Part shown: in pieces, positions 1 through 20,104 of the stretch
Layout: each line of letters opens with the position of its first letter
Position numbering within the stretch: the first letter of the stretch is position 1
Translations under genes and position numbers: made by a program
Notes under the pieces: generated by a model
Database searches by the model: none
What the model was told of the DNA's origin: nothing
Seen by the model: only the letters and a program-made list of their open reading frames with translations
Source: Myxococcaceae bacterium
GTDB lineage: Bacteria; Myxococcota; Myxococcia; Myxococcales; Myxococcaceae
Direction: 5' to 3'
Assembly (NCBI GenBank): GCA_035304185.1
Contig: DATGQN010000114.1
Coordinates: 1 to 22,578 of the forward strand
Length of the DNA: 22,578 nt

Positions 1-1118
1 CACATCTTGATGCGGATGTCGCCGGCGAAGGTCACGTCCCACGCGCTCGCGTGGCAGACCACGTCGCGGTCGCGCGGCTTCACGAACTGGCTGCGCTCCC
101 AGAAGGTCTCCGGCAGCTTCTCCAGGCCCAGCGAGGTGAAGAAGGACTCACCGAGCTTCACCATCTTGAGGTGGTCCCACTTCTGCGCCTGCAGCTCGCG
201 CGTCACGTCCAGGCTCGCCTGGCCGGGGTACGGCTCCATCAGCGGGTAGATGTTCATCCACTCCTGCGCCCACATGTTGCCGAGCAGGTGCGCGGGGATG
301 GGCTCACCGGCGGGGACCTTGTCCTCGCCGTACTGCTTGGCCAGGCGGCCGCGGACGTAGCAGTGCAGCTCCTCGTACAGGGGCTGGACCTGCTGCCACA
401 GCCGGTCGGTCTCCTTCTCGAACGCCTCGGGGGGCATGTCGTAGCCGCTGCGCCAGAGGTCGCCCAGATCGTTGAAGCCGATCTCGCGCGCGCCCTCGTT
501 CCCAAGCGTCACCATGCGCTCGAAGAGGGGGCGCATCGGCGGGGAGACGGTGCGCCAGCCGACCCAGGCCTCCAGCAGCTCGTCGTAGTTGCGGCTGGTG
601 TCGATGACCCGGGAGAGCTCGAGCAGATCCCGGCACTCGCCCTTCCCGTCCTCACCGCAGTACCTGCCCTTGCCGTAAATCCCCTCGAGGCGGGAGGCGG
701 TGGTGGCCAGCTCCTCGCGCTTGGCGGGATCCGACGGCGCCGGCAGTGAGGAGGAGAGGCGCAGCAGCTCCAGTTGGCGCTTGGTGTCGGGGTTGGTGGC
801 GACGTCCACGAACGAGGCGGCCTTGGGGATGGCGGTGGAGAGGTAGGCCATCACCGCCTCGTTGGCGGTCGCGGCGTTCCGCTCGGTGTCGCCGGTGATG
901 TAGGTGGCCTTGATCCACTCGGCGGTGGCCGCGCGGGTCCAGAGCTCCTTGAGCTCGGTGTTCACCTGCTTGGCGTAGGCATCCGCCTCCTCCGCGGTGG
1001 GCGCCTTCTCGGCCTCAGCCTCGGCGGGTTCGGGTGCGGCAGCGGGAGGTGTCTCCTGCTTGGAAGGACAGGCACTCAGGCCCAGCAGCATCAGGGAAGC
1101 TAGAAGCAGTCGTCTCAT
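1..1118 (-). CDS. M2-family zinc peptidyl-dipeptidase (angiotensin-converting-enzyme-like) lipoprotein; 5' ~372 codons only, the gene continues past the window start
   Basis: Reverse-complement translation from the ATG at 1118..1116 gives [17 protein letters not shown] (signal peptide with lipobox LSAC). Further in it reads ...[32 protein letters not shown]...FFTSLGL...VVCHASAWD...IRIKMC. I recall this as matching human ACE ([22 protein letters not shown]...FFTSLGL...[10 protein letters not shown]...FRIKQC). The frame is open to position 1, and the HEMGH zinc motif would lie just outside the window. This frame runs off the window edge, so the ORF track does not list it. The + ORF 51..749 is antisense to it. 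Confidence 0.85.
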   Translation of the reverse strand, partial: [372 protein letters not shown]

Positions 1119-1223
1119 GGGGCGCGTACCCTACTCAGGGATGTTGGCCGGCCGCCACGACTCAAGCGCCCCTCCGGCCCCGCCGTTGCCGCCAGCGGGG
1201 AGCGTGGACAGCGTGCCCGCGGC
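1119..1223. promoter_or_regulatory. 105-bp divergent intergenic region between the ACE-like gene and the AI-2E transporter gene
   Basis: Positional only. The AI-2E start is uncertain, so the region may be larger. Confidence 0.25.
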
Positions 1224-2438
1224 ATGGATCCCGAAGAGCCAGCCGGACCGACGCCCCCCTCCGCTCCCCCGTCGGAGCCGATGCCGGAGGGGGCATCCCC
1301 TTCACCGACGTCCAACCGGGGGCCCTCCTTCCCGGAAGGCTCGCCCCTGCCGCCCGGCGATCCCTCCCAGCTCCTCTCCCGCGCGGATCTGGCCTTCGCC
1401 GTCACGCTGCTGGTGGGCCTGCTGCTCACCCTGGTGATCTACGCCTTCTTTCCCACCATCATCGCGGTCTTCCTGATCTCCTCGGTGGTCACCTACGCAC
1501 TGGTCCCGCTCGCCGATCTTCTCGAGCGGCAGGGCCTCAACCGGACCGCGGGCGTGGCGCTCGCTGGCCTGGCGGGGATCGGCGCGGTGACGGTCATCGT
1601 CCTCCTCATGGCACCCACGGTCAGTGAGCAGGTGCAGCAGTTGCCCGGTGCCATCAGCCGGATGGGAGACCGGGTGCTCGAGCTGTGGGAGTCCCTCACC
1701 ACCGCCCTTCCGCCGGTGGTGATCCAGACCACCGAGCGGATCGTGGGCGGTGTCTGGCAGGAGCTCTCCGGCTTCCAGGGCGTCGGGGGCGGGCTGTTGG
1801 CCCGCTACGCAGGAACCGCCGCCAGCGGCGTCACGGCGGTCGCCACCTCCCTCATCCTGGTCCCGGTCTTCACCTTCCTCATGTTGCGCGGCTACCACCA
1901 GTTCATCGGCGGCATGTTGGAGCTGGTCCCCTACCGCTGGCGTCCGCGGTTCAAGCAGCGGACCGGCGAGGTGGACGTGGTGCTCTCCGGCTTCATCCGC
2001 GGCCAGCTCACCATCTGCGCCATCCTGGTGGTCCTCTACGCTGTCGCCTTCTCCATCATCGGCGTGCCCCTGGCGATCCTCATCGCCATCCTGGGCGGGG
2101 TGGGTGAGCTCATCCCCTACCTGGGGAACGTCCTCGCACTGACGCTGGGGATGCTGCTTGCCTTCGCGGGAGGCTCCGCGATGGACGCGGTCTGGGTGGC
2201 GGTCGCCTACCTGGTGATCCAGGGCATCCAGTCCGCCGTCATCTCGCCCTACATCATGGGACGTCGGGTGAGCCTGAGCCCGGTGACCATCATCGTGGCC
2301 CTGGCGATCGGTGGGCAGATCCTGGGCTTCATGGGACTGCTGTTCGCGGTGCCGGCCGCGGCGCTGCTCAAGGTCGGTGCGCGCTCGGCGCTGAGCTCGT
2401 GGCGCCTGAGCGGCTTCTATCGCAAGACCCCGGGCTGA
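1224..2438 (+). CDS. AI-2E family transporter (UPF0118/PerM/TqsA-like inner-membrane protein) with a Pro-rich N-terminal extension
   Basis: 404-aa ORF with about 8 predicted TM segments. C-terminal half reads ...GELIPYLGNVLALTLGMLLAF...VISPYIMGRRVSLSPVTIIVALAIGGQILGFMGLLFAVPAAALLKV, typical of PF01594 AI-2E transporters. The first ~55 aa are Pro/Ser-rich and low-complexity, so the true start may be further downstream; no clear Shine-Dalgarno (SD) sequence precedes any candidate start. It is divergent from the ACE-like gene. Confidence 0.8.
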   Translation: MDPEEPAGPTPPSAPPSEPMPEGASPSPTSNRGPSFPEGSPLPPGDPSQLLSRADLAFAVTLLVGLLLTLVIYAFFPTIIAVFLISSVVTYALVPLADLLERQGLNRTAGVALAGLAGIGAVTVIVLLMAPTVSEQVQQLPGAISRMGDRVLELWESLTTALPPVVIQTTERIVGGVWQELSGFQGVGGGLLARYAGTAASGVTAVATSLILVPVFTFLMLRGYHQFIGGMLELVPYRWRPRFKQRTGEVDVVLSGFIRGQLTICAILVVLYAVAFSIIGVPLAILIAILGGVGELIPYLGNVLALTLGMLLAFAGGSAMDAVWVAVAYLVIQGIQSAVISPYIMGRRVSLSPVTIIVALAIGGQILGFMGLLFAVPAAALLKVGARSALSSWRLSGFYRKTPG

Positions 2439-2573
2439 AGGCCGTCGGCAGCAGTCCCCGGAAGGCGCCCAGAAATATTCAGACGCGCGGCAGATCCAAA
2501 CGCGGAGGGAGTGCGTTCGAGCAGCCACCTCAACGCTCCCGCTCCCGGGACCTCACCCTCGAGGGTCTGCCGC

Positions 2574-4391
2574 ATGAACGTCCAAACCTCCCGCGCGCTG
2601 CTCGCCGCGTGCGTCCTGTTGATCGGCACCGCCTGCCACCGCAGCTCCCATTCTCCCTCCGAGCCCGCCGCGATGCAGGGCAACGACGACACGCCGGGCG
2701 TCACCGTGGAGGCGCTGGTCGTCCGCGATGTCCGGGAAGTGCCTGCGGAGCCGGCTCGCCCCGCGCCGGCCCCTCCTCCTGCCGCCGAGCTCAGGGAGGA
2801 GTCGCGGCGCAGCCGGGATTCGCTGGTCTCCCGGGCTTCAGAGAAGCTGCGGAACCTGATGGGAGCCGGCGCCAGCGTCCAGTCACTCTCCGGCACCGAT
2901 GGCCCCTCCCTCTCCCTGTCGGCGGCGCGGCCGGCCCATTCGTTCGAGCAGGAGGCGAAGCGGTCCGCGCTGCCGCCGGCCAGGGATGGCAATCGCTTCC
3001 AGGGGATGGAGCCCAACCCCTACGTGCGCACCGCCGACGATGCGCTCTCGACCTTCGCCATCGACGTGGACACCGCGAGCTACTCGGTGAGCCGGCGCTA
3101 CCTGATGCAGGGAGCCCTTCCGCCGGCGGACGCGGTGCGGGTGGAGGAGTTTCTCAACGCCTTCACCTACCGCTACCCCGCGCCCCGGCGTGAGCCCTTC
3201 TCCGTGCACCTCGAGGGCGCGCCCTCTCCGCTCACCTCCGGCCGCACCCTCCTGAAGGTGGGCGTTCAGGGACGCCAGGTCTCCCGCGCGGATCGCAAGC
3301 CGGCCAACCTGGTCTTCCTCGTGGACACCAGCGGTTCCATGAACCATCCGGACAAGCTCCCGCTCGCCATCGATGCCCTCAAGCTCCTGGTGAAGAACCT
3401 CAACGAGCACGACACCATCGCCCTCACCACGTACGCCGGCTCGACCCGGGATGTGCTGCCTCCCACCCCCGCCACCGAGTACACCCGCATCTACCGGGCG
3501 CTCGATTCGCTGAGGTCGGGTGGCGGAACGGCGATGGGGGCGGGGCTCACCACCGCCTACGCCCATGCGCTCAAGGGCGCCGGCAGCGGACGCAACTCGC
3601 GGGTCATCGTGCTCACCGATGGCGACGCGAACCTGGGTCGCAACCTCACCCCGGACGCGATGCTGGAGAGCGTGAAGGCGGGTGTCGAGGAGGGCGTTAC
3701 CCTCACCACCATCGGCCTGGGGATGGGCAACTACCGCGATGATCTGCTCGAGCGCCTCGCCAACCGCGGCAACGGCAATGCCTTCTACATCGACAGCATG
3801 AAGGAGGCCCGGCGGGTGTTCGAGACGCGGCTGGCCGGCACCCTCGAGGTCATCGCCAAGGACGTGAAGATCCAGGTCGAGTTCAACCCGAAGGCCGTGT
3901 CCGGGTACCGGCTGCTCGGCTACGAGAACCGTGACATCGCCGACGAAGACTTCCGCGACGACAAGGTCGACGCCGGCGAGATCGGCGCGGGCCACAGCGT
4001 GACCGCCCTCTACGAGGTCGCGCTCACCGGTAAGGACGACACCCTCGCCACCGTCCGCGTGCGCGCCAAGGCGCCGACCGGCACCCGCGCGACCGAGTCC
4101 GCCTTCACCTTCGGACGTGACCGCCTCTCCAGCACGCTCGAGGGTGCCTCCCCGGACCTCCGCTTCGCCGCCGCCGTGGCCATGACCGCCGAGGTGCTCC
4201 GCCGCGCCCCCGACTCCGAGTCCATCTCCCTCGAGCGGGCACACCGCCTGGCCAAGGGAAGCATCCAGCGCGACGAGGACCGTGCGGAGTTCGTCAAGCT
4301 GCTCGAGTCCGTGCAGCAGCTGAGCTCGCGCGTCGCGCGGAGCCCCTCGCCCGCGCCGCGTCACGCCCCGATGCCGGAGCACGCCTACTGA
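2574..4391 (+). CDS. von Willebrand factor type A (vWA/MIDAS) domain lipoprotein, YfbK-like (vWA_N2 + vWA + DUF3520-like C-terminus)
   Basis: Start taken at ATG 2574 (MNVQTSRALLAACVLLIGTAC, signal peptide with Cys lipobox); the track ORF begins upstream at 2511. N-terminal block NPYVRTADDALSTFAIDVDTASYSVSRRYL...VEEFLNAFTYRYP. vWA fold with MIDAS motif LVFLVDTSGSMN...TAL...GGGTAMGAGL...VIVLTDGDANLG. C-terminal VKIQVEFNPKAVSGYRLLGYENRDIADEDFRDDKVDAGEIGAGHSVTALYEV matches the YfbK-family tail as I recall it. Confidence 0.8.
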   Translation: MNVQTSRALLAACVLLIGTACHRSSHSPSEPAAMQGNDDTPGVTVEALVVRDVREVPAEPARPAPAPPPAAELREESRRSRDSLVSRASEKLRNLMGAGASVQSLSGTDGPSLSLSAARPAHSFEQEAKRSALPPARDGNRFQGMEPNPYVRTADDALSTFAIDVDTASYSVSRRYLMQGALPPADAVRVEEFLNAFTYRYPAPRREPFSVHLEGAPSPLTSGRTLLKVGVQGRQVSRADRKPANLVFLVDTSGSMNHPDKLPLAIDALKLLVKNLNEHDTIALTTYAGSTRDVLPPTPATEYTRIYRALDSLRSGGGTAMGAGLTTAYAHALKGAGSGRNSRVIVLTDGDANLGRNLTPDAMLESVKAGVEEGVTLTTIGLGMGNYRDDLLERLANRGNGNAFYIDSMKEARRVFETRLAGTLEVIAKDVKIQVEFNPKAVSGYRLLGYENRDIADEDFRDDKVDAGEIGAGHSVTALYEVALTGKDDTLATVRVRAKAPTGTRATESAFTFGRDRLSSTLEGASPDLRFAAAVAMTAEVLRRAPDSESISLERAHRLAKGSIQRDEDRAEFVKLLESVQQLSSRVARSPSPAPRHAPMPEHAY

Positions 4392-4437
4392 CCCGGCCCG
4401 GGCTCCCGCGTCGGTAACAAGCCCGCTGGTATCCCGT

Positions 4438-4466
4438 GGCCCTCCGTCTCCGCGCATCGGAGGCCG
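4438..4466. terminator. weak hairpin between the convergent vWA and giant-ATPase genes
   Basis: CCTCCG (4441-4446) pairs with CGGAGG (4458-4463), 6-bp stem with an 11-nt loop. A palindrome CCCGGcCCGGG lies immediately after the vWA stop (4392-4404). Confidence 0.25.
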
Positions 4467-4501
4467 GGGGCCACGTCGCTTTGAAGGGCAGGTACTGCCG
4501 C

Positions 4502-7500
4502 TCAGGCGGGAGGGCGGATCCCGCGCAGGAGCTCGAGGGCTTCACTCACCTGCTTCCACACCTGCATGGCGCGCACATACCCCTCGCCCTCCTTCAGGTG
4601 CGAGCGGGCCAGACGCGCGAGCGGAACCAGCATCCCCTCGAGCAGGACGAGCTGGCGGGCGACGTCGTCGGGCACCATCACCAGCGGCGGGGCTCCACTT
4701 CCCGCGGCGGCCGGTACCGCCATGGGCATGGGACCGGAATCCACGGGCGCCGGGCGGGACACCGCATCCACCGTGCTCTGCTGCGCGGGGCGACTGGCCA
4801 GGATTTCGAGCACCCGTCCCAGCTGCTCCAGGTAGGGAGCGAGATCGGGCGCCGATGCCGCCTCGGCCTTCTCGCGCTTGGGAAGGGGCGGCGGACGCTG
4901 CTGCTGCTTTCCGAGGTCGGCGGCCACGTTGACCAACTGCTGAAGCGACTGCTCGAGCGTGTTGAGCCGCGGCTCGATGAGGCCCCAGGTCGGGCCCGGT
5001 CCGGACGGCGTGGTCTCGGGCTGGCTTCGGGCCTCGGCCGCGGTGCGCGCCGCCTCCAGGATGCCGGTGCGGATCCCGGTGAGCTGCTCGCCGACTTCCG
5101 AGAGTTCGGCGGTGACGCGGGTGACCGGATCATCGTCGGAGCCCCCCTGGCGCACCACGCGCGCGAAGCCCCGCTTGAGCTCGTCCCAGCGCGCCTTCTC
5201 CTCGGCAGAGAGCCGGCCGCGAAGCTCACCGAGCTTGAGGAGGTTGCCCTCGGCGCCGGTGGTGAGGGTCTGAGACTCGCCGCGGTAGTGATCGTCGATG
5301 AGCTCCTCGAGCTCCGCGTCGGTCATCGCCGAGACCACCTTGGAGGCCAGCCGCGACATGTTGCGGTAGCTGCCCTGCAGCTTGAAGGGGGGCTCGGTGC
5401 GGAAGCGATCGTCCTGCGCCGCCGAGGCGATGTAGGCCGCGTTCACCTTGCCCAGGGTCTGCTGGACCTTGAGCAGCCGCTGCAGCACCGCGACCATCTC
5501 CTGGACCTCGACCGCCGACCAGCTGCCCTCGAGCGCGTTGGCGCTCTCCTCCCGCCCCTGCGCAATCCGGATGAGCAGCTGGGTGTCCTTGCGATCCCGG
5601 AGGGCCAACGGTGCCAGGACCTCGTTGGAGGTCAGCGCGTTCTCCACGAAGGAGAGGGCGAAGAGCTCCTCGCGCCCATTGAGGATGTCACCCAGGTTGT
5701 AGGTGTCGGCGCGGTTGGCGAGCATGTCCGGGATGCGGAAGCGCTCGCCGGTCTCGTTGTAGGGGTTGCCCGCCATGACCACGGCGAACTTCTTGCCCCG
5801 CAGATCGTAGGTCCGCGTGCGGCCGTTCCAGACGCCCTCGATGCGGCGCTGCCCGTCGCAGAGGCTGATGAACTTCTGGAGCAGCTCCGGATCGGTGTGC
5901 TGCACGTCGTCCAGGTAGAGCATCACGTTGTTGGCCATCTCGAAGGCCAGGTTGATGCGCTCCACCTCCTGCCGCGCGGTGGCGTTGGGCGCCTCGCTCG
6001 GATCCAGGGACTTCACCGCGTGCCCCAGCGCCGGCCCGTTCACCTTCACGAAGGCGAGGCCCAGGCGGCTGGCCACGTACTCCATCAGGGTCGTCTTGCC
6101 GTAGCCCGGCGGGCTCATGAGCAGCAGAAGGCCCTGCCGATCGGTGCGCTTGTTCTCGCCCACCGTTCCCAGCTGCTTGGCGAGGTTGTCGCCGATGAGG
6201 GGCAGGTAGACCTCGTCGATGAGCCGGTTGCGCACGAAGGTGCTGAGCACCTTGGGCTGCAGCTCGTCGAGCCGGAAGCGCCGCCGCTCGCGCTCGATGA
6301 GCTCGCGCAGGGCCTTGCGGTAGGCGTGGAAGGCCGGGACCTCGACGTGGCGGAAGTGCCCGATGCGCTCGAGGAAGGCGTCCAAGCGCAGGTCCAGCTT
6401 CCCCTCCCGGATGCGCGGATGGCTTCCGAGCAGCCCGGAGACCTCGCCGGCGATCAGGGCGCTCGCGCTCACCCGATCCAGCTGGGCACCGGTGAGCAGC
6501 ATGACCGCCGCCTCGTCCAGGGCGTGCGCCCGTGCCCCGGCGTCCGCGTCGGTCCTCACCAGGCCGGAGAGCCAGGCGCGCATCAGCCCCAGACGCTCAG
6601 GGAGCCGCTTCTCGAGCGCCCGCAGATCCTCCTCGAAGACCGACCGGGTCCCCCGCGCATCGAGCAGCGCCATCAGCCGGTCGCAGAGCCACTCGGCGTC
6701 CGCGCTGCTGGTGAAGCGTGGATGCTCGGCGGTCAGCTCCTCACTGAGGTAGCGCCCCGCGACCCGGGTGACGCCCGGGGCATGCGGGATGCGGTGGGCG
6801 TCGAGGAAGGCCGCGATGCGCTCGGCGAGCTCATCTCCCAGCTCGAGCAGCGCGGGGGCCTGCTGGAAGACCGTCCGGAGGCGGCCCAGCGATCGCGCGC
6901 GGCTGTGCAGCTGATCCCGCTCGCCGGCATCCTCGAGGAAGGCCCAGTAGAGACAGGCGAAGGCCCGAGGCGTGGGCGCGTGGCGCAGCAACCCCGCGCC
7001 GTCATGGAGCGCGAGCAGCTTGCCCAGGATGACGCTCGCGTCGACGTCGTGAACGCCCCGCTCGTAGCCCTCCTCGTAGCGATCGGCGGCGACCTTGCGC
7101 ACCAGCCCGAGCAGCCCGTCCGGCGCCAGTGCCGCCTCGTGGAGCGCCGGGACCGAGAGACCGTTCTGCTGCTCCTCGGCGTCGAAGAGGATGCTCCCCG
7201 CCAGGTACTCCGCCCGGTAGACCTCCGGCGACTCCGAGACCAGGTGCTGATCGAAGCGCGAGGTGTGCTTCAGGATCTCCGGATCGGTGATGGGCTCCGA
7301 GAAGTCGGTTCCCAGGATGTTGAGGGACAGGCCGCCATCACGGGGGAGCACCGTGAGTTCCAGCGCCTGGGTGCTCACGCTGAAGCGGTGCGTCCCGAGC
7401 CGCAGGACGTTCTCGCCCCCCTCGAAGATCTCCGCGCGATCGCGCAGGCCTCGCAGCCCGTCCTGGCGCGCGGTCTTCAGCCGACCTTCGAGCTCGTCCC

Positions 7501-9985
7501 CGCGGACCGGATCGCCCAGCTCGACGAGCTGCTTGGCCATCTCGCGCAGCTTGAAGACCATCGCGTCGGTGGCGAAGTAGGCGTTGAGCGCGTCCTCGTC
7601 GGAGAAGCCCTGCGCCCGGCGCAACACGCCCTGCAGGATCCGCTCGGCGGCGGTGAAGAGGTTCTGCGCGCGGCGGTGTCGCTCGTCGAGCAGGGCCTGC
7701 TTGCGCGCACCGAAGGCCTCGTAGAGCTCCTCGCGGCGCTCCTGGAGCTGCTCCAGGAAGCCGTCGAACTCGCTGAAGCGCCCTTCGAGTTCCTCGAGCT
7801 GCACGGTCAGCCGGCCCAGGGACTCGTCGCAGTCCTCGGGCGTCTCCACCCGCGCGAGCGCGCTCTCCATGGCCTGGCCCAGCAGCCGGAACTGGGCGCT
7901 GAACTCGACCTTCTTCTCACTGCCCAGCAGTTCCCGCCGCCGCGCGGTGAGCGTCGCTCGGACGCGGTTGACCGTTCCGAACAGCTCGCCGATGCCCTCG
8001 AGGATGGTTGCGCGTGCAACCGGGTCACCGACCTGGAGGCCGGAGACCACCTCGGAGAGGACGTCCAGCCCGCGCGAGGTCTCCTCCAGCTGCTCGACCA
8101 GCGGCTCCATCTCGAGCGTGGTGGTGGCGGGGCCCGCGCGCTCGAGCAGGCTCTCGAGCTGCTGGGCCAGGGGGCGCAGCGCCTTGTCGTCGCGCAGGAA
8201 CGTGACGCAGCCCTCACTCACCTCGTCGGTGGTGCGGGCGATCTCCTGCTCCATCGCCTCGAGGCGTGCGCGGTCGATGTGGCGCAGTTCCTTGAGGGTG
8301 ATGAGGTGGCCGCGGTGGTTGCGCAGCTGCTCGAGCGCACGCATGAACTCCTCTGCGGTGGAGAGGTGCTCGGCGCGTGCATCCCGGAGGATCTCGAGCT
8401 GGGTCGCCTCGGCCTTGGTGAGCGCCTCCTCGGCGCGACGGCGGAGCGCGAGGACCTTCTCGTACTCATCGATGATGAGCTCGGCCGAACGCCGCAGCGC
8501 CTGCATCGGCTCGGACAGGCCGATCTCCTCGTGCCCCAGCCAGTGGTAGGCGTCCGCGGCCCGGGTCACGCCGGCGATCAGATCCTCGAAGGTCCGCCGG
8601 TTGGGCTCCTGCGCATTGGCCACCCGCCGAAGTGTCAGGGCCTCGGAGATGCCGCGGACGAGCTCCGCGTTGCCGATCTTGCCCAGGAAGCCCGGGACGG
8701 GAGGCGCCTGGGCGGCAAACTCCATGGAGACGAAGGGCGTCTGCCAGATCTGGATCGGATGCACCCGGGTGGGCTCGGTCAGGGTGCTGCGGAAGATCGC
8801 CATCCGGCCGTCGGCGAAGAGGCTGTAGCCGTGGCATTGGATGGGGGTCTGCATCTCCTTGCGCACGATGTTGTAGGGGAAGAGGACGTAATCCCCCTTC
8901 TCACGCGCGTGGAAGACGTAGAGGACGTCCTCGCCGTTGGGGCTTCGGAGGACGCGCTCGTACTCGAGGTCGGGGGGCTGTCCCTCGAAGCGCTTGAAGT
9001 CCCCGGTCTGGAGGTAATAGCCGCCGGGGAAGACCAGCCCCTGATCCTCCGGGAGCTGGATGCAGGCGTGCCCGATCTCGTCGACACGGGCCACCTGCTC
9101 GGTGCGGGTGTTGAAGACGAGGTAGCGCCAGGTCTCCTCCCGATAGGGGAGGATCTTCAGCAGGATGAGCGAGCCCACCCGCGCGTACTGAATGGTCGCG
9201 TCGTCGAGCGATTGATCCGGCGAGTCCACCGGTTCGCTGTAGATGCCCTGCCCTTCCTCGGTGTTGTTCTCGATCTTGACGGTGAGGTCACCCTTCACCG
9301 TGTCCACGAAGATCGTGTCGAGGATGTTGACGTGGGGGTGCTCGCCCGTGACGAAGTTCTCACGGGTGGCGGTCGTCCACTCGAAGTCGTGGCTGCGCGG
9401 GAAGACGTATTCGCGCTCGCCCCGGTTGTCGACGTAGGTGACCGCCCCGTCGGTGCCGATGTTGAAGCGGAAGACCCGGACGTCGGTCTGGCGCTCGCCG
9501 GTCTGGAAGACGGCGATGAAGCCGCCCTCGGTGCGCCGCAGCTGCAGGAGCTTGGCGCCCTTGTAGTAGCGGAAGAGCTCGGTGAAGTCCTTGACGAAGC
9601 GGGGGTCGGAGAGGAACGCCCCGCCCTCGGAGGCGGGGACGGGATCGACGTCGAACCCATCCTCCCGCTCCTCGAAGCGATGGAGGCTGAAGACGTCCGC
9701 GACCGTCGTCTCCTGGCGCAGTCCCAGGAAGACGTCGAAGCCGAAGAGCAGATGCGGCCCGACCGCGATGATGTCGCGGGGCAGGCAGTTGTTCTCCGTC
9801 CGCGCGCGCTCGTTGCCGATGACGCTGAGCTCGGTGCCACCGAAGAGCTCCTTGCGCCGTTCGTTGAGCGCCTCCGCCTTCTCCCCCACGGCCAGGGCCT
9901 GGGAGAGGAGGCGTGCACGGATCACCTCATAGCTGCCGCCCTCGGGTCCTTCGACCTGGGCGGCGGCCTTCGCTTCGTTCGTCAT
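4502..9985 (-). CDS. giant (1827 aa) multidomain protein with one dynein/MoxR-type AAA_5 P-loop ATPase module near residues ~1280-1440. It has an N-terminal ~470-aa beta-rich globular region, a ~750-aa alpha-helical/coiled-coil middle, and a Pro-rich C-terminal tail. No TM segments or signal peptide. Function unknown.
   Basis: Single uninterrupted minus-strand ORF. Walker A LLLLMSPPGYGKTTLMEYV (K codon at 6097..6095). Walker B NNVMLYLDDVQHTD. Sensor-like FAVVMAGNPYNETGERFRIPDMLANRADTYNL, the AAA_5 pattern (h-h-a-t-NP ... R..D..L.NR). Amino-acid composition is diverse, not just GC-driven; the antisense 1866-aa + ORF is G/A/R/L/P/E/V low-complexity. Only 25 bp separate its ATG from the flotillin stop. 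My unverified recollection is that similar ~1700-1800-aa proteins are annotated in databases as 'DNA repair ATPase-like' (DUF3686 plus AAA) with no experimental function. Confidence 0.75.
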   Translation of the reverse strand: MTNEAKAAAQVEGPEGGSYEVIRARLLSQALAVGEKAEALNERRKELFGGTELSVIGNERARTENNCLPRDIIAVGPHLLFGFDVFLGLRQETTVADVFSLHRFEEREDGFDVDPVPASEGGAFLSDPRFVKDFTELFRYYKGAKLLQLRRTEGGFIAVFQTGERQTDVRVFRFNIGTDGAVTYVDNRGEREYVFPRSHDFEWTTATRENFVTGEHPHVNILDTIFVDTVKGDLTVKIENNTEEGQGIYSEPVDSPDQSLDDATIQYARVGSLILLKILPYREETWRYLVFNTRTEQVARVDEIGHACIQLPEDQGLVFPGGYYLQTGDFKRFEGQPPDLEYERVLRSPNGEDVLYVFHAREKGDYVLFPYNIVRKEMQTPIQCHGYSLFADGRMAIFRSTLTEPTRVHPIQIWQTPFVSMEFAAQAPPVPGFLGKIGNAELVRGISEALTLRRVANAQEPNRRTFEDLIAGVTRAADAYHWLGHEEIGLSEPMQALRRSAELIIDEYEKVLALRRRAEEALTKAEATQLEILRDARAEHLSTAEEFMRALEQLRNHRGHLITLKELRHIDRARLEAMEQEIARTTDEVSEGCVTFLRDDKALRPLAQQLESLLERAGPATTTLEMEPLVEQLEETSRGLDVLSEVVSGLQVGDPVARATILEGIGELFGTVNRVRATLTARRRELLGSEKKVEFSAQFRLLGQAMESALARVETPEDCDESLGRLTVQLEELEGRFSEFDGFLEQLQERREELYEAFGARKQALLDERHRRAQNLFTAAERILQGVLRRAQGFSDEDALNAYFATDAMVFKLREMAKQLVELGDPVRGDELEGRLKTARQDGLRGLRDRAEIFEGGENVLRLGTHRFSVSTQALELTVLPRDGGLSLNILGTDFSEPITDPEILKHTSRFDQHLVSESPEVYRAEYLAGSILFDAEEQQNGLSVPALHEAALAPDGLLGLVRKVAADRYEEGYERGVHDVDASVILGKLLALHDGAGLLRHAPTPRAFACLYWAFLEDAGERDQLHSRARSLGRLRTVFQQAPALLELGDELAERIAAFLDAHRIPHAPGVTRVAGRYLSEELTAEHPRFTSSADAEWLCDRLMALLDARGTRSVFEEDLRALEKRLPERLGLMRAWLSGLVRTDADAGARAHALDEAAVMLLTGAQLDRVSASALIAGEVSGLLGSHPRIREGKLDLRLDAFLERIGHFRHVEVPAFHAYRKALRELIERERRRFRLDELQPKVLSTFVRNRLIDEVYLPLIGDNLAKQLGTVGENKRTDRQGLLLLMSPPGYGKTTLMEYVASRLGLAFVKVNGPALGHAVKSLDPSEAPNATARQEVERINLAFEMANNVMLYLDDVQHTDPELLQKFISLCDGQRRIEGVWNGRTRTYDLRGKKFAVVMAGNPYNETGERFRIPDMLANRADTYNLGDILNGREELFALSFVENALTSNEVLAPLALRDRKDTQLLIRIAQGREESANALEGSWSAVEVQEMVAVLQRLLKVQQTLGKVNAAYIASAAQDDRFRTEPPFKLQGSYRNMSRLASKVVSAMTDAELEELIDDHYRGESQTLTTGAEGNLLKLGELRGRLSAEEKARWDELKRGFARVVRQGGSDDDPVTRVTAELSEVGEQLTGIRTGILEAARTAAEARSQPETTPSGPGPTWGLIEPRLNTLEQSLQQLVNVAADLGKQQQRPPPLPKREKAEAASAPDLAPYLEQLGRVLEILASRPAQQSTVDAVSRPAPVDSGPMPMAVPAAAGSGAPPLVMVPDDVARQLVLLEGMLVPLARLARSHLKEGEGYVRAMQVWKQVSEALELLRGIRPPA
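5665..6150 (-). other. AAA_5-type ATPase core (Walker A, Walker B, sensor/arginine region) inside the giant gene
   Basis: GYGKT P-loop at ~6110..6095, LYLDD at ~5920..5905, VVMAGNPY...FRIPDMLANR at ~5800..5720 (forward coordinates of minus-strand codons). Confidence 0.7.
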
Positions 9986-10010
9986 CTTGGACGCCGGCCT
10001 CTTGGGTCAG

Positions 10011-12095
10011 TCAGTCTTTGGATTCGGGCTTGGTGACCTTGGCGGTCCGGGCCAGGAGCGCCGCGGCGGCCAGGTTCTGAACGTCCTGGGTCGCGCCGGG
10101 CTTGCTGAGCACCTCCTTGAGGTCCTCGGCCAGGTCCTTGCTGCCATCCAGGTAGTTCTTGAAGAAGCCCTGCAGCTTCTCGCTGGAGTCGATGGCCGCA
10201 TCCACGCCGGTCCCGAAGGACAGGGAGCGGACGAAGCGCTCGAAGAACTCGCCGTCGCCGCCGACGATCTTGAAGTCGGCATTGGCGAGCGCCTTTCCGA
10301 GCACCTCGGCCTGGGCGAGCGCCACGCTCTGGCGCACGTTGATCTCCGCCAGCGCGACCTCCTTCTCCTTCTCGATCTGGAGGCGGAACTCCTCGTGCTC
10401 GCGGCCGACCCCGTCCAGGGCCTTCATGGACTCGGCCTTCTCGGCCAGACCGCGGGCCTCGGCGATGAGGCGCTCCTGGATCGCCTGGGCCTCGGCCTCG
10501 CCGCGCTTCTGGATGGCAAGCGCCTCGGCCTCCTGCACGCGGATGGCGGCCAGCCCCTTCTGCTCGGTGCCGGTGGCTTCGGCGACCATCTGCTCGCGGA
10601 CCACCGCGGCCTGCGCGATGCCCTGCTTCTCGATCGCGGCGGCGTCGGCCTCGCGGACGCGCACGGACGCCATGCCCTGCTTCTCCTGGGCAAGCGCCTC
10701 GGCCTCGAGCACGCGCGCCCGGGCGAGGCCTTCGGCAGCGGCTTCGGCCTGGGTGCCCTCGGCGATGCGGACCTTGGACTTGGCGATGCGGTCGGCAGCC
10801 TCCAGCTCGACGTCGGCCAGGGTCAGCCGCTCGCGGGCGGTGAACTTGGCGACCTCGGCGGCGACCTCGGCGGCCTTCATCTCCTTGACCAGGCGCTCCT
10901 GGGCCTCGGCCTCGGCGGCGATCACGCGCGCGTCCTTGCCTCGGGTCGCCTCGGCGACCACGCGCAGATCCTTGATGGCCTCCTCCTCCTGCGCCACGGT
11001 CTTCTCGACGACGATGCGGGTGCGGATGACGTCGGCGATGGCCTTCTTCTCGGCCTCAATCGCCTTCTCCTTCTCGATCCGGCGCAGCTCGACCTCGCGC
11101 TCGCGGAGCAGGGCCTCGAGCTGCTGATCCTTGGTGACCCGCTCGGTCTCCACCAGGACCACGCGCTCGCGGTTCTTCTGCGCCACCTCGATCTGGCGCA
11201 GCTTGTTCTGTTCGTTGACGAAGATCTCCTCCTCGGCGCGGATGCGGGCCATCTCGGCGCGCGCGTGCTCCTCCTGCCGCACGAGCTCCGCCTGGGCGTG
11301 CTCACGGGCGCGGATGGTGGCGATCTCCCGCTGCTGCTCCTCCTCCGCCTTGGCGCGCTGGCGCTCGAGGGCGAAGACCGCCTCGTCGGCCTCGACGCGG
11401 CGCTTGGTGATCAGCATGCGCTCGTTCTGGCGCAGGTCCTCGGTGGCGATGTTCTCCACCGTGGTGATCTGGGTGATCTTCTTGATGCCGACCGAGTCGA
11501 GGACGTTGCTCGGATCGAGCACCTCGAGCGGGGTCTGCTCCAGGAAGTCGATGGCCACGTCTTCGAGGGTGTAGCCGTTGAGGTCCTGGCCGATGACCTT
11601 GACGATCTCGTCCTTGAACTCCTGGCGCATCGTGTAGAGCGCCTCGAAGTCCATCTGCTTGCCGACCGTCTTGAGCGCCTCGGAGAACTTGGCCTCGAAG
11701 AGCTCCTTGAGGGTCAGCTCATCCGACGCGCGCTCACAGCCGATGGCCTGCGCCACCTTGAGCACGTCCTCGCGGGTGCGGTTCACGCGGACGAAGAAGG
11801 CCACCTTGATGTCCGCGCGGATGTTGTCGCGACAGATGAGGCCTTCCTTGCCCCGACGATCGATGTCGACCGTCTTGAGCGACATGTCCATGACTTCGGC
11901 GCGGTGGATGATGGGCAGCACCACGCCGCCGGTGAACGTGACCACCGGCTCGCTCTTGAGCGTGTTGATGATGAGCACGTGGCCCTGCTCCACCTGTCGG
12001 TAGAAGCGGGCGACCATCATGCCCAGGCCACCGAGCACCACCGTGCCGCCGCCGGCGATGGTGCCGTAGAGAATCAGATCGTCCATTGGAGGCAT
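10011..12095 (-). CDS. flotillin-like SPFH/band-7 protein (YqiK/FloT-like) with an N-terminal membrane anchor and a very long EA-rich coiled-coil
   Basis: 694 aa. N-terminal hydrophobic segment LILYGTIAGGGTVVLGGLGMMVARFY. SPFH core ...GHVLIINTLKSEPVVTFTGGVVLPIIHRAEVMDMSLKTVDIDRRGKEGLICRDNIRADIKVAFFVRVNRTREDVLKVAQ... A ~350-aa Glu/Ala/Arg/Gln-rich heptad region follows (AEEEQQREIATIRAREHAQAELVRQEEHARAEMARIRAEEE...), typical of bacterial flotillins. AGGA sits 6 nt upstream of the ATG. Confidence 0.85.
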   Translation of the reverse strand: MPPMDDLILYGTIAGGGTVVLGGLGMMVARFYRQVEQGHVLIINTLKSEPVVTFTGGVVLPIIHRAEVMDMSLKTVDIDRRGKEGLICRDNIRADIKVAFFVRVNRTREDVLKVAQAIGCERASDELTLKELFEAKFSEALKTVGKQMDFEALYTMRQEFKDEIVKVIGQDLNGYTLEDVAIDFLEQTPLEVLDPSNVLDSVGIKKITQITTVENIATEDLRQNERMLITKRRVEADEAVFALERQRAKAEEEQQREIATIRAREHAQAELVRQEEHARAEMARIRAEEEIFVNEQNKLRQIEVAQKNRERVVLVETERVTKDQQLEALLREREVELRRIEKEKAIEAEKKAIADVIRTRIVVEKTVAQEEEAIKDLRVVAEATRGKDARVIAAEAEAQERLVKEMKAAEVAAEVAKFTARERLTLADVELEAADRIAKSKVRIAEGTQAEAAAEGLARARVLEAEALAQEKQGMASVRVREADAAAIEKQGIAQAAVVREQMVAEATGTEQKGLAAIRVQEAEALAIQKRGEAEAQAIQERLIAEARGLAEKAESMKALDGVGREHEEFRLQIEKEKEVALAEINVRQSVALAQAEVLGKALANADFKIVGGDGEFFERFVRSLSFGTGVDAAIDSSEKLQGFFKNYLDGSKDLAEDLKEVLSKPGATQDVQNLAAAALLARTAKVTKPESKD
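10440..10760 (-). repeat. periodic ~54-66-nt coding repeats (E-K/Q-Q/K-G-x-A... units) in the flotillin EA-rich coiled-coil region
   Basis: Recurring gccctgcttctc (10621 and 10675) and cagccccttctgctc / cgcgcttctggatggc motifs. Protein units EAEALAQEKQGMASVRVR / EADAAAIEKQGIAQAAVVR / EQMVAEATGTEQKGLAAIRVQ / EAEALAIQKRGEAEAQAIQ. Confidence 0.55.
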
Positions 12096-12197: not shown

Positions 12198-13043
12198 CTA
12201 GGAGGCCCGTTCCTTGGCGCGGGCGAGCGCCGCGGCGCGGGAGGGATCGTCCAGCGCAGAGAGTTCCTCGGGCAGCAGCCAGTCCACCGGCTCCACCTCG
12301 TACACCTCGCGGGCGGGATCGAACTCCAGGATCAGGGCGCGGTCTCCGCGCTTGAGGGTGTTGGCCCTGGCGCACACCACGTGGAGCCGCAGGCCCGCGC
12401 CGCCGTCCTCGAGGATGGCCTGTCCGTGCCGGCCGTCCACCGAGCCGCTGTCGATGACGCAGACCCGGCCGAGGAGCGTGTTGCGGGTGGGCGCATGCTT
12501 GAACTTGAAGAAGGGTCGCAGCGGCTTGATGGCGAGCGCCGAGAGGCCCACGCCCAGCGCGCCCCCGCCGACGAACACCCCGCCCTTGAGGATCGGGCTG
12601 GGGAAGACGTCGGGGAGCGCGGGTCCGAGCCAGTGCATCCCGAGGAGGGTCGAGGCCCAGCCGATGAAGATCAGCAGGGAGAGCGCGATGGTGACCGGAA
12701 CCCCGCCGAGGCCGAGCACATCCAGCAACCCGTGCCCCTCGGCCCCCAGCGCTTCGGACTTTCCGGCGAGGGCCTCCGCCTTCCCCGCGAGGGCCTCCGC
12801 CTTGCCGGCAATCGCCTCCCCTGCCCCGTCCAGCCCATCACCGATCGCGCCCAGCGCCTCGGCCTTGCCGGAGAGGGCTTCCGCCGCCCCATCCCCGTCC
12901 AGGGCGTCCAGCCCCACCTGGCCCAGAATCACCGCGAGCCAGTAAAGGAACACCATCCCCATCAGCAGCGAGAACGGAAGAACCGGAAAGGTCAGGGCGA
13001 GGTTGAGGAGGTGCTCCATGGGCAGCGGCGCAGCATAGTCCAC
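12198..13043 (-). CDS. NfeD-like / YqiJ-like membrane protein (N-terminal TM helices plus C-terminal OB-fold NfeD domain), the usual flotillin partner
   Basis: N-terminal TM helices (LNLALTFPVLPFSLLMGMVFLYWLAVILG...; GVPVTIALSLLIFIGWASTLLGMHWLG). C-terminal NTLLGRVCVIDSGSVDGRHGQAILEDGGAGLRLHVVCARANTLKRGDRALILEFDPAREVYEVEPVD fits the NfeD beta-barrel pattern (G.v.v.d..v.G....a.ir..G...........i..G..V.V). Sits immediately upstream of flotillin on the same strand, the YqiJ-YqiK arrangement. Start is ambiguous: GTG 13043 or ATG 13019. Confidence 0.7.
   Translation of the reverse strand: MDYAAPLPMEHLLNLALTFPVLPFSLLMGMVFLYWLAVILGQVGLDALDGDGAAEALSGKAEALGAIGDGLDGAGEAIAGKAEALAGKAEALAGKSEALGAEGHGLLDVLGLGGVPVTIALSLLIFIGWASTLLGMHWLGPALPDVFPSPILKGGVFVGGGALGVGLSALAIKPLRPFFKFKHAPTRNTLLGRVCVIDSGSVDGRHGQAILEDGGAGLRLHVVCARANTLKRGDRALILEFDPAREVYEVEPVDWLLPEELSALDDPSRAAALARAKERAS
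12744..12890 (-). repeat. in-frame 21-nt tandem repeat (~3 perfect or near-perfect copies plus degenerate flanking copies) encoding AGKAEAL heptads in the NfeD-like gene
   Basis: Forward strand 12765-12827 reads cggcgagggcctccgccttcc / ccgcgagggcctccgccttgc / cggcaatcgcctcccctgccc, with a related copy at 12861-12888. Protein: ...AIAGKAEALAGKAEALAGKSEALGAEG..., sitting between the TM region and the OB-fold domain. Confidence 0.7.
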
Positions 13044-13210: not shown

Positions 13211-13948
13211 TCAGCGCGCGTCAAAGGCCAGGGAGACCGCGCCTTGGGGCTCGCCGGTGTTGGCGTCGACCCGCTCGAAGGAGAATCGGACCGACTGGGC
13301 CTGGGGAGGGAGGACGGGGAAGTAGATGAAGCCGTCCACCACGCCCCCTTCCTCGAGGACGCCTTCGGGCACCGCATGGACCAGCATGTCGCGGGTGGGG
13401 AGCTCCACCGGCCAGGCAGGAGGCGCCCACGACCAGGTTCCGCCATAGCCCCAGGGGCCGTACCAGCGGGGGATCCCCGGATAGTACCGGCGGTAGCCGG
13501 GGGCCACGTAGAAGCCGTGGGAGCGCATGGGGTGCCCGTACCAACCGAAGCTGCCGCCCATGGCGGGGCCGGCGTCGCTCCACGTCCGCACCCACGCCTG
13601 TCCCCGGATGTCGAGCGGCGGGACCGCGGCCATCACCATGCCTCCCTGCACGGCCAGCGTGAACGCGTCATAGGTGATGCGCAGGGGGATGCCGCTCTGG
13701 TTCTCGATCCGCACCCGCATCGGGATGGCGACCCCGAGATCGCGGGGGAAGGCCCGCCAGGCGTCGGCATCGGCGATCACCCGGACCCCGTCGGCCTCTC
13801 CGACGACGGCCGACGGGACGCCAGCCACCACCGTTTCGCCTTCGGCCGGCACCAGCGGCGGGGTGGTGGCGCAGGCCGACAGCAGGGCCATGGCTCCCAG
13901 AGCCGACCACCAGACATCACGCCGCTGCTGCCTGACCTCCGTCTTCAT
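13211..13948 (-). CDS. hypothetical lipoprotein with a Trp/Tyr/Gly/Pro-rich segment
   Basis: MKTEVRQQRRDVWWSALGAMALLSAC: signal peptide with lipobox LLSAC. Realistic composition. Aromatic-rich block YRRYYPGIPRWYGPWGYGGTWSWAPPAWP. No family recognised. Same strand as the NfeD-flotillin-ATPase cluster and 167 bp upstream of it. Confidence 0.55.
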   Translation of the reverse strand: MKTEVRQQRRDVWWSALGAMALLSACATTPPLVPAEGETVVAGVPSAVVGEADGVRVIADADAWRAFPRDLGVAIPMRVRIENQSGIPLRITYDAFTLAVQGGMVMAAVPPLDIRGQAWVRTWSDAGPAMGGSFGWYGHPMRSHGFYVAPGYRRYYPGIPRWYGPWGYGGTWSWAPPAWPVELPTRDMLVHAVPEGVLEEGGVVDGFIYFPVLPPQAQSVRFSFERVDANTGEPQGAVSLAFDAR

Positions 13949-14299
13949 CCTCGCTCCGCGTCGGGCCGGGCGTGCCCGTCCAAGACTTGAAGCTAGGTGG
14001 CGGACGTCTCAGAGGGGACCTTCCCGCCTCCGGGCAACCGCTGCCTCATGCCCCTTCGTCCGCTCCCCCGGGCAGAGGGCCTTCGGCTCTTTCCCTGGCG
14101 CGCACGACTTTCGCGTAATGAACGTTTAGGGCGTTCTGCTGCGACGAGACGTCGACAGGCCTTACGGCAGGCGGGCAGGCTTTCAGCCCGGTGGCCGACA
14201 CTGTCCGGAAGGGCAGTGTGCGTGCGGACGGGTCGGAGCGGGACCCGTTTCGGGCGCTTCGCGGCCCGGGCAGAGCGCGCGCAGGGCTGGAGGGGAGCC
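13949..14299. promoter_or_regulatory. 351-bp divergent intergenic region (lipoprotein gene <-> STAS-like gene) containing several inverted repeats
   Basis: GAACG-N7-CGTTC at 14120-14136. ACACTG-N10-CAGTGT at 14198-14219. Hairpin CGGGTC-N7-GACCCG followed by TTT at 14229-14250. SD GGAGGGGAG at 14288-14296. No convincing sigma70 or sigma54 consensus. Confidence 0.35.
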
Positions 14300-14716
14300 A
14301 TGAGGAACATCTTCGACGACGAGCACGTGACGGTGACCCTGGAGAACGGGTGCCTGCACCTGGGCTGGACGAAGGACGTGGTGGACGGTCCTGAAGCGGT
14401 CGAGCTGGCCCGCCGGCTGACGGAGGCCCTGGGCCGGGTGGTGCGCGAGGCGCCGCCCAAGTCCATGACCATGTTGGTCGACCTGATGGTGATCCAGAAG
14501 CCGGCCCCCAAGGCGAACGCGGTCTTCCTGGAGTGGCTCCGTCGGGACTGGCGCTCCTTCCGCGCCACCGCCTTCGCGTCGCGCAACACCCTGCTCCGCT
14601 CCACCATCAAGGTGGCCAGCCTCCTCCCCGGCATCCACGTCGCCGGCTTTGCCACGGTCGAGGAGGCCCGGGCCCATCTGGAGAAGCAGGTCGTGCTGGA
14701 GCCGGTTGCGGGCTGA
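14300..14716 (+). CDS. small cytoplasmic protein, possibly STAS/SpoIIAA-like fold (138 aa)
   Basis: ATG 14300 is preceded by GGAGGGGAG 4-12 nt upstream (strong SD). The in-frame upstream part of the track ORF (13997..14299) is Arg-rich junk. The alternating beta/alpha pattern HVTVTLENGCLHLGW...AVELARRLTEAL...MLVDLMVI...IHVAGFATVEEARAHL resembles anti-sigma-antagonist/STAS domains. Assignment is tentative. Confidence 0.5.
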   Translation: MRNIFDDEHVTVTLENGCLHLGWTKDVVDGPEAVELARRLTEALGRVVREAPPKSMTMLVDLMVIQKPAPKANAVFLEWLRRDWRSFRATAFASRNTLLRSTIKVASLLPGIHVAGFATVEEARAHLEKQVVLEPVAG

Positions 14717-14737
14717 TCGCCGCGGCCGCTGACGGCA

Positions 14738-14757
14738 AGGGGCCCCCGCGGCCCCTG
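14738..14757. terminator. GC-rich hairpin between convergent genes (possible bidirectional terminator)
   Basis: aagGGGCCcccgcGGCCCctg: 6-bp perfect G/C stem with a 5-nt loop, located between the STAS-like stop (14716) and the htrA stop (14786). No U-tract, which is common in high-GC genomes. Confidence 0.35.
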
Positions 14758-14785
14758 CCCCATTCAGCGTTGCCGGCCCCTCACC

Positions 14786-19367: not shown

Positions 19368-20104
19368 TGAACCGGATTCTCGTTCTCGGCGCGACCAGCG
19401 CCATCGCCCAGGCCACGGCCCGCCTTCTCGCCGAGCAGGGAGCGTCGCTGTTTCTCGTCGCCCGGAACGCCGAACGACTCGAGGCGGTGGCGCAGGATCT
19501 CCGGATCCGGGGCGCGTCAGTGGTTCATTCGGAGGTTCTGGATCTCGACGAGGTCGCGGCGCACGAGAGGCTGATCCACCGCGCTGATGTCGCGCTCGAG
19601 GGATTGGACGCGGCACTGCTCGCGCATGGCGTGCTGGGTGATCAGGAGGCCTGTGAGAGCGACTTCGCCTCGGCGGCCAAGCTGCTGCACACCAACTTCG
19701 TGAGCCCCGCGAGCCTTCTGACCCACCTGGCCAACCTGCTCGAGCCGCGAGGCAAGGGAACGCTGGTGGTGATCTCGAGCGTCGCCGGTGACCGCGGGCG
19801 GCAGAGCAACTACGTCTACGGTGCCAGCAAGGGCGGCCTCACCGTTTGGCTGCAGGGGCTGCGCAATCGACTTACGCCCCATGGGGTCCGCGTGCTGACC
19901 GTGAAGCCCGGCTTCGTGGATACGCCCATGACCGCGCACCTGCCGAAGAACGCGCTGTTCGCGCAGCCGGATGACATTGCTCGCGGGATCCTCAAAGCCG
20001 TGAAGGGCAAGCGGGATGTGATCTACCTGCCTGGCTTGTGGCGGCCGATCATGACTGCGGTGCGTGCGTTGCCGGAGGCGGTGTTCAAGCGGTTGAAGTT
20101 GTAA
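19367..20104 (+). CDS. dprE2: short-chain dehydrogenase/reductase homologous to DprE2 (decaprenylphospho-2'-keto-ribose reductase)
   Basis: MNRILVLGATSAIAQATARLL (Rossmann motif GxxSxIA). Catalytic segment SSVAGDRGRQSNYVYGASKGGL (YxxxK). C-terminal ...LPEAVFKRLKL parallels Rv3791 ...IPRSIFRKLPI as I recall it. Immediately downstream of, and overlapping, the DprE1-like gene. The start could alternatively be GTG 19364. Confidence 0.85.
   Translation: MNRILVLGATSAIAQATARLLAEQGASLFLVARNAERLEAVAQDLRIRGASVVHSEVLDLDEVAAHERLIHRADVALEGLDAALLAHGVLGDQEACESDFASAAKLLHTNFVSPASLLTHLANLLEPRGKGTLVVISSVAGDRGRQSNYVYGASKGGLTVWLQGLRNRLTPHGVRVLTVKPGFVDTPMTAHLPKNALFAQPDDIARGILKAVKGKRDVIYLPGLWRPIMTAVRALPEAVFKRLKL

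Follow-up and report, generated by a model that had tools for sequence, protein, structure and literature searches.

A giant AAA+ ATPase encoded after YqiJ-like and flotillin-like genes in a Myxococcaceae bacterium

Contig DATGQN010000114.1 of a Myxococcaceae bacterium (assembly GCA_035304185.1), of which a stretch of 22,578 nucleotides (the window) was analyzed, encodes on its minus strand a giant AAA+ ATPase of 1827 residues, the third gene of an operon with a YqiJ-like and a flotillin-like gene. This strict three-gene operon is the main clue to the function of the ATPase: As it is always encoded after flotillin-like and YqiJ-like genes, it is most likely a membrane-scaffold remodeler and not a DNA repair enzyme. 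The family is known and functionally uncharacterized (Pfam DUF3686 and DUF7902 plus an AAA domain), and the window adds one more orthologue to it. A sequence-only reading of the same DNA had outlined the protein, and parts of that outline are retained below; it missed the prior literature and, as nothing outside the open reading frame (ORF) of the ATPase was considered, the conserved operon.

The YqiJ-like, flotillin-like and ATPase cassette

In the window, the cassette consists of the following genes, listed in the order of transcription:

12198..13043, minus strand: YqiJ/YuaF-type (NfeD-like) membrane protein, first gene of the cassette, recognized by hhalign, YqiJ_N and three transmembrane-like segments
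10011..12095, minus strand: flotillin-like protein of 694 residues, YqiK type (SPFH/Band-7), with an N-terminal hydrophobic anchor, 25 nucleotides upstream of the ATPase start
4502..9985, minus strand: coding sequence of the 1827-residue ATPase including the stop codon, recognized by the ORF list, translation, third-position GC content, Pfam and identity to PA3728

The flotillin-like protein is matched by NCBIfam FloT (E-value 7e-7), and Band_7 matches were found in 2 of 18 of its homologues. Searches of the protein and of its family profile against Protein Data Bank (PDB) sequences gave no match; the homology to YqiK was therefore shown by hhalign against the Escherichia coli protein, which aligned to the family profile with a probability of 99.9% (E-value 8e-32). 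For the YqiJ-like family profile, the same comparison with E. coli YqiJ gave a probability of 91% (E-value 9e-7); YqiJ_N matches occur in 3 of 18 homologues, and YuaF is the best PDB profile match, a weak one (E-value 0.08). The true start of the YqiJ-like gene is probably the ATG at 13019.

We fetched 80 related loci from the Myxococcota, Actinomycetota, Gammaproteobacteria, Planctomycetota, Acidobacteriota, and Eremiobacterota. Upstream DNA was available for 77, and in every one of these a flotillin-like gene lies directly 5' of the ATPase gene on the same strand, with the flotillin stop and the ATPase start overlapping by 4 nucleotides in 13 loci. Clustering of the flanking ORFs placed a YqiJ-like gene in 74 of 82 loci; in this unbiased analysis, the YqiJ-like, flotillin-like and ATPase genes were the only conserved ones. 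DUF2170 and PspA genes precede the cassette in 9–11 gammaproteobacterial loci, and in some gammaproteobacterial loci a PLD-family gene is found 3' of the ATPase gene. Scans for sigma-70 promoters and terminators around the cassette of the window returned nothing informative.

The gene call itself requires a word, given that the window has a GC content of about 69% and that very long ORFs are listed for both strands across 4.4–10.0 kb. The antisense ORF at 4436..10036 (plus strand, 1866 codons) exceeds the ATPase gene in length. Codon-position GC is 0.73/0.43/0.92 in the ATPase ORF and 0.92/0.43/0.73 in the antisense ORF; as a third-position value (GC3) of 0.92 is expected of a real gene at 69% GC, the minus-strand ORF is the true gene, and the plus-strand ORF, with 0.92 at the first and 0.73 at the third position, is the shadow of a gene with high GC3. 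Shadow ORFs of this kind could mislead gene callers. With its GC3 and thousands of homologues, the ATPase ORF is genuine, and its translation holds all the strings that the sequence-only reading had quoted.

Compared with PA3728 of Pseudomonas aeruginosa, the ATPase shows 50% identity over 1628 residues with 8 gaps. The gene order around the P. aeruginosa homologue (P0207 in our set) is DUF2170, PspA, YqiJ-like, flotillin-like, ATPase, PLD-family, YaeQ, RecJ, LasB, and its position by lasB, recJ, and yaeQ identifies it as PA3728. Identity and operon membership jointly leave little doubt that the ATPase is the myxobacterial orthologue of the BacE/PA3728 family and the third gene of the same cassette. 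BacE (PA3728/PA14_16190) is collinear with it, has the same Pfam domains, and is encoded right after the YqiJ-like BacC and the flotillin-like BacD/PaFlo3. Unlike the P. aeruginosa operon bacABCDEF, which starts with a DUF2170 protein (BacA) and PspA (BacB) and ends with the PLD-family BacF, the window contains the three-gene core only, with no pspA or PLD gene nearby, and the tails of the two ATPases differ in sequence and length.

Published work on the P. aeruginosa genes provides a first physiological context. Wallart et al. (2024) identified PA14_16140 to PA14_16200 by reverse-transcription PCR as one operon, bacABCDEF, in which bacE is PA14_16190, and found BacB to BacF to accumulate 6–13-fold in a bacA mutant (PMC10948618); the bac cluster as defined by Macé et al. 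(2008) did not include the ATPase (PMC2587700). An rsmA mutant has PA14_16190 among its top differentially expressed genes (PMC8855297), and isolates from cystic fibrosis show recurrent mutation of PA3728 (PMC8190622). The operon and a beta-propeller/coiled-coil/AAA+ architecture were already described by Ravi et al. (2024), who proposed a role in sub-membrane remodeling, noted PLD in some Proteobacteria, and found "abbreviated operons" without PspA to be more widespread (PMC11237479). The window, which has the same architecture and partners, represents such an abbreviated operon, lacking the CesT/Tir-PspA dyad. Their study is one of comparative genomics only; the AlphaFold2 models presented below refine the architecture to a rod of 435 residues with extra beta and helical domains, and we place the AAA module, whose Walker B is DD, in the MoxR/dynein class. 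A literature search for DUF3686 or PF12458 found no paper.

The ATPase matches more than 4,500 clusters at 90% identity, and those that are named are called "DNA repair ATPase". Similarity to its relatives extends over residues ∼15–1640 with identities of 46–62%; the search of representatives retrieved orthologues and fragments only and did not reveal the nearest outside relatives. Scanning one genome per species, we found relatives in at least 594 of 185,579 species, with P. aeruginosa, Proteus, Morganella, and Providencia among the pathogens that carry the gene. The cassette is present in 13 of 72,556 plasmid records, mostly chromids or megaplasmids, and in none of the phage records searched.

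One of these megaplasmids is pQBR103 of P. fluorescens SBW25 (NC_009444.1, stretch 1..10506), on which the cassette directly follows yjfK/L/M/C-type genes (DUF2491, DUF350, DUF1190, and glutathionylspermidine synthase family), a polyamine-linked operon class that Ravi et al. tied to the CesT/Tir-PspA dyad (PMC11237479). No pspA gene is found in this stretch, and a gene of the MvaT/MvaU family lies just downstream of the cassette.

The patchy distribution would fit horizontal transfer, and with the occurrence on a few megaplasmids it raises the question of whether the cassette is an anti-phage or conflict system, in which flotillin and YqiJ would sense the perturbation of the membrane by a phage and the ATPase, in some species with the attached PLD-family protein as effector, would respond. 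The induction of PA3728–PA3732 in all phage-infected samples of one study (PMC12041424) is in line with this, but would be expected anyway of a Psp-type envelope stress response. Several observations argue against a defence function: PADLOC-DB 2.0 gave matches at noise level only for the ATPase (LmuB in the rod, E-value 4e-4; IetA at the P-loop, E-value 1e-3) and none for the flotillin-like and YqiJ-like proteins, phage records lack the cassette and plasmid records rarely carry it, and the neighbors in the window are housekeeping genes (HtrA, ABC-F, transporters). Furthermore, identity of ∼50% across phyla, nearly free of gaps, and of 84% in the AAA core is unlike the fast evolution of defence genes. 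We thus consider this explanation improbable.

Domain architecture of the ATPase

Two AlphaFold2 models were calculated on an alignment of 62 sequences, and strands and helices were read by DSSP: Model A covers residues 1–900 with a mean predicted local distance difference test score (pLDDT) of 86.3, and model B covers residues 850–1700 with a mean pLDDT of 88.2 and a predicted TM-score of 0.75. The resulting map, from the N- to the C-terminus, is as follows:

9842..9934, minus strand: long N-terminal helix, residues 18–48 (model A, pLDDT >90)
8726..9835, minus strand: beta-rich head, residues 51–420, a probable divergent beta-propeller of ∼7 blades (DSSP on the AlphaFold2 model, Foldseek)
7421..8725, minus strand: all-helical, spectrin-repeat-like rod, residues 421–855, with DUF7902 inside it at nucleotides 7931–8185
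7214..7420, minus strand: small beta domain, residues 856–924 (models A and B agree; strands at 860–898)
6476..7213, minus strand: helical middle domain without family match, residues 925–1170 (model B, pLDDT about 90–97)
6146..6475, minus strand: linker to the AAA module, three strands followed by two long helices, residues 1171–1280 (model B)
5681..6145, minus strand: AAA+ alpha/beta core, residues 1281–1435
6092–6115, minus strand: P-loop SPPGYGKT, residues 1291–1298, with K1297
5897–5923, minus strand: Walker B LYLDDVQH, with D1359/D1360
5705–5782, minus strand: sensor-1 N1407 and R1425
5546..5680, minus strand: AAA+ lid helices, residues 1436–1480
5111..5545, minus strand: conserved C-terminal helical domain, residues 1481–1625, with the invariant RFRTEPPFKLQGSYRNM motif (model B, invariant columns)
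4505..5110, minus strand: variable tail, residues 1626–1827, two long helices followed by Pro-rich linkers (composition, conservation)

The N-terminal region, in which the sequence-only reading saw no recognizable motif, carries two Pfam families: DUF3686 at residues 35–481 (E-value 2e-201, 669.7 bits with a gathering threshold of 25) and DUF7902 at residues 601–685 (E-value 9e-25, 87.2 bits with a gathering threshold of 26). The beta-rich nature of its head had been read correctly, and the suggestion of a propeller is supported. Model A places ∼28 strands at residues 54–415, a number from which we derive ∼7 blades, and the Foldseek matches of the head in the PDB, weak as they are (E-values of 5e-5 to 5e-3, TM-scores of 0.1–0.3), are nearly all beta-propeller proteins: Elp1, a nuclear-pore scaffold protein, the clathrin terminal domain, prolyl oligopeptidase and paraoxonase, as well as Ski8, Ctf4, WDR91, and DDB1. 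Self-comparison of the head with hhalign revealed no blade repeats at the sequence level. We assign the head with moderate confidence to the divergent beta-propellers, in accord with the published description (Ravi et al., PMC11237479).

The helical part following the head is shorter than first thought: Instead of a coiled coil of ∼750 residues (470–1250), the models predict a rod of 435 residues composed of helices of 14–58 residues each, after which three further domains follow. Heptad-like windows exceed the level of shuffled sequences only at residues 490–591, 720–757, and 796–823, by a score that was calibrated against shuffles and is crude rather than a validated coiled-coil predictor. 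The middle domain (residues 925–1170) has no Pfam match at E≤5 and no likeness to the AAA profile. No transmembrane-like segment was found in the ATPase.

Across 61 homologues, mean identity is highest in the AAA core (84%), followed by the head and the C-terminal domain (62% each), the rod (52%), the middle domain (46%) and the tail (22%). Residues 1–1625 are essentially free of gaps and the rod is without indels; a rod of such constant length would fit a partner whose geometry is fixed. In all full-length representatives, the AAA region begins at residues ∼1170–1460.

In the models, the helices of the rod span residues 421–852, the strands and helices of the linker 1171–1272, the AAA alpha/beta core 1287–1430, the lid helices 1439–1475, and the C-terminal helical domain 1491–1625. 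Beyond the C-terminal domain, long helices continue to residue ∼1695 in model B. The tail is rich in Pro (11.4% over residues 1626–1827), poorly conserved and variable, and probably disordered, as the sequence-only reading had it; most lineages have no such tail or a different one. The homologues of Xenorhabdus, the enterobacteria and the actinobacteria lack it, and it ranges from 0 to 330 residues elsewhere. It carries short recurring helical motifs (L.P.L..L and E..L.PL). Amphipathic motifs such as DLAPYLEQLGRVLEIL and LLEGMLVPLARLA recur in the otherwise unconserved, Pro-rich tails of distant homologues, including those of Pseudomonas, the Planctomycetota, the Acidobacteriota, and Methylomonas, and look like docking helices for a partner.

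A single AAA module is present, as had been read from the letters. Apart from SPPGYGKT, no motif of the GK[ST] type occurs in the 1827 residues, no further AAA module was found by Pfam at E≤5 in the other segments, and hhalign of the AAA profile with the profiles of the head, the rod, the middle and the C-terminal domain gave a probability of 0.2% each. A second, degenerate module at residues 925–1280 was considered and rejected by Pfam, model B, and hhalign. In the full protein, Pfam AAA and AAA_5 match only weakly at residues 1287–1415; searched in isolation, the domain covers nearly the whole AAA_5 profile at 31 bits, above the cut-off, and only the first two thirds of PF00004. The strings VVMAGNPY...FRIPDMLANR, on which the AAA_5 assignment was originally based, lie at residues 1402–1425 and contain the motif NP...G..F.IPD.L.NR. 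The closest structural neighbors are the MoxR proteins CbbQ and NorQ, dynein, and midasin. In model B, a beta-hairpin precedes sensor 1 (strands 1381–1386 and 1389–1394, between a helix at 1366–1375 and a strand at 1400–1406), and the helix-2 insert region is modeled as an invariant loop of 18 residues with short helices (1317–1334) and no hairpin. The AAA_5-type assignment to the MoxR/dynein class stands, with a modest margin over other clades; the classical AAA clade (Vps4, Cdc48, FtsH) was rejected on the partial PF00004 coverage and the structural neighbors. D1359 and D1360 are invariant in the 62 sequences, none of which has a Glu here, and R1425 is invariant in the family alignment.

MoxR proteins are stand-alone ATPases of ∼300 residues that are usually paired with a VWA-domain partner. 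The ATPase shares with the family (CbbQ, NorQ, RavA) an AAA_5 match above the cut-off, the NP...G..F.IPD.L.NR motif and the hairpin before sensor 1; it differs in its length, in a Walker B with DD and not DE, and perhaps in the helix-2 insert, for which no hairpin is predicted. The dynein heavy chain and midasin, which concatenate six AAA modules in one chain, resemble it as giant proteins with AAA_5 modules and long helical elements. With its single module, the ATPase would need to oligomerize, and by analogy with the hexamers of CbbQ and NorQ, a hexameric ring with an arginine finger acting in trans is plausible.

The domain map also bears on the name under which the family is listed. A role as a DNA-repair ATPase is given by the Pfam description of DUF3686 and by the NCBI product name; RuvB_N and the NCBIfam RuvB profile match weakly at the P-loop, and in P. 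aeruginosa recJ is the third gene from that of the ATPase. The RuvB matches, however, extend over only ∼45 residues at the P-loop, and their score of 20 bits is far below the cut-off of 282; a search of all segments found no DNA-binding, nuclease or helicase domain, and no repair gene is conserved nearby, the conserved neighbors being membrane proteins only. The literature searched showed no link of the family to repair. The sequence-only reading had suspected that the label exists in databases without evidence: The label is there, nothing we found supports it, and we regard a repair function as very improbable.

Neighboring genes in the window

Of the genes outside the cassette, the one closest to the ATPase encodes a VWA-domain protein:

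2511..4391, plus strand: VWA-domain protein (vWF_A, VWA, and YfbK_C), convergent, 110 nucleotides from the ATPase stop

It was considered as a partner of the MoxR type and rejected, being convergent and not conserved; as a VWA/YfbK neighbor recurs in only 1 of the 80 related loci (L002), the adjacency looks coincidental. A partial gene at 1..1130 (minus strand) matches Peptidase_M2 (angiotensin-converting-enzyme-like, E-value 6e-105) and encodes a bacterial homologue of this enzyme.

Adjacent to the cassette on its upstream side, 13211..13948 (minus strand, like the cassette) encodes a protein of 245 residues with a lipoprotein-like signal (LSAC) and a stretch rich in W, Y, G, and P; it has no family match and is not conserved in the related loci. 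Next to it, two overlapping ORFs on opposite strands, 13993..14763 (minus) and 13997..14716 (plus), lack family matches. The codon-position GC of the plus-strand ORF is the more gene-like (0.70/0.55/0.84); the minus-strand ORF has an Arg/Ser-rich translation and looks spurious. Further along, a FAD_binding_4 gene (18021..19367, plus strand) and a short-chain dehydrogenase ORF (19241..20104, plus strand) overlap by 127 nucleotides as listed; the true start of the dehydrogenase is probably further downstream, as its domain begins at residue 45. At 20001..22578, the GC content falls from about 0.69 to about 0.63. This segment, which may be horizontally acquired, encodes the C-terminal part of an AcrB-type RND transporter (21050..22528, minus strand) and has an ORF with weak similarity to ZIP.

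Possible role in remodeling membrane scaffolds

Flotillin/SPFH cages and the ESCRT-III-like polymers of PspA are central to the organization and repair of bacterial membranes, and we know of no dedicated energy-consuming machine in bacteria that builds or dismantles either of them. Pairs of a membrane scaffold, be it an SPFH cage or an ESCRT-III/PspA polymer, and a dedicated AAA+ machine are found in HflK/C with FtsH and in ESCRT-III with Vps4. For the ATPase, these are functional analogies only, as it has no protease domain, MIT domain, or transmembrane anchor.

By a narrow preference, we favor the view that the ATPase is an ATP-driven remodeler of the co-encoded flotillin/YqiJ scaffold, and of PspA where present, acting through a ring and rods in envelope stress. 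The ATPase is soluble and cytoplasmic. Its AAA+ module and C-terminal domain would assemble into a ring, as the related CbbQ and NorQ do, from which rigid rods would carry the propeller heads to the cytoplasmic side of the membrane. At this site, the heads would take hold of the co-encoded flotillin/YqiJ scaffold and, in loci with an attached pspA gene, of PspA polymers, and binding and hydrolysis of ATP would assemble, reshape or dismantle the scaffold as part of the envelope-stress response. The gene, its domain order, the single AAA module, the conserved operon and the family are established here, and co-transcription and co-regulation were shown by others in P. aeruginosa; that a ring forms, what it acts on and which way it remodels is what we infer.

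Several points speak against this proposal. A pspA gene was not found in the window, nor was a sigma-54 site upstream of the cassette by a scan that was, on the whole, uninformative. Deletion of paFlo3, the flotillin partner, in P. aeruginosa PA14 reduced the biofilm by only about 20% and had no further phenotype (PMC13086221). In all homologues, Asp takes the place of the catalytic Glu of Walker B (D1359–D1360), a replacement that may mean slow hydrolysis or a module that works as a switch. An aromatic pore-loop motif is not evident in the ATPase, making the threading of a polypeptide doubtful. Together, the DD Walker B and the lack of such a loop favor an action of the lever or switch type over that of an unfoldase that threads its substrate fast.

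The same operon evidence would also be compatible with flotillin and YqiJ being the platform rather than the target: They might bring the ATPase to a membrane microdomain and control it there, in the way that the AAA+ protease FtsH is confined by cages of HflK/C. The clients would then be others, for example membrane proteins that are damaged or wrongly inserted, complexes for secretion, or enzymes that handle lipids, of which the PLD-family BacF is one. The MoxR-class proteins CbbQ and NorQ do remodel specific client enzymes and not scaffolds. The PLD-family gene 3' of the ATPase gene in several Proteobacteria points the same way, as does the chaperone-like assembly of membrane-linked complexes proposed by Ravi et al. 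(PMC11237479). However, the clustering of flanking ORFs revealed no conserved fourth gene across phyla that could encode a client, the PLD gene is confined to some gammaproteobacterial loci, and the strict co-inheritance of the three genes is explained more simply if the partners are the target. A platform of this kind hence appears unlikely, if less so than a defence function.

Remodeling of the co-encoded scaffold could have a wider meaning. Reviews still describe bacteria as being without a Vps4-like ATPase for PspA (PMC7619361). We tentatively suggest that the family might be the missing ATP-driven remodeler of bacterial sub-membrane scaffolds, either as a counterpart of Vps4 for PspA/ESCRT-III polymers or as an "uncoating" machine for flotillin (SPFH) cages. 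It may in that case have been built independently, from one oligomerizing AAA+ module of the MoxR/dynein type and propeller heads on spectrin-like rods of fixed length. Whether the family remodels flotillin or PspA assemblies is an interesting question, to which the window itself does not advance the answer. The name "DNA repair ATPase", although in wide use, has no support and probably misleads. The family stands out by its strict co-inheritance with the flotillin pair in at least six phyla and by an unusual degree of conservation, and the value of the finding is that it points to a tractable system.

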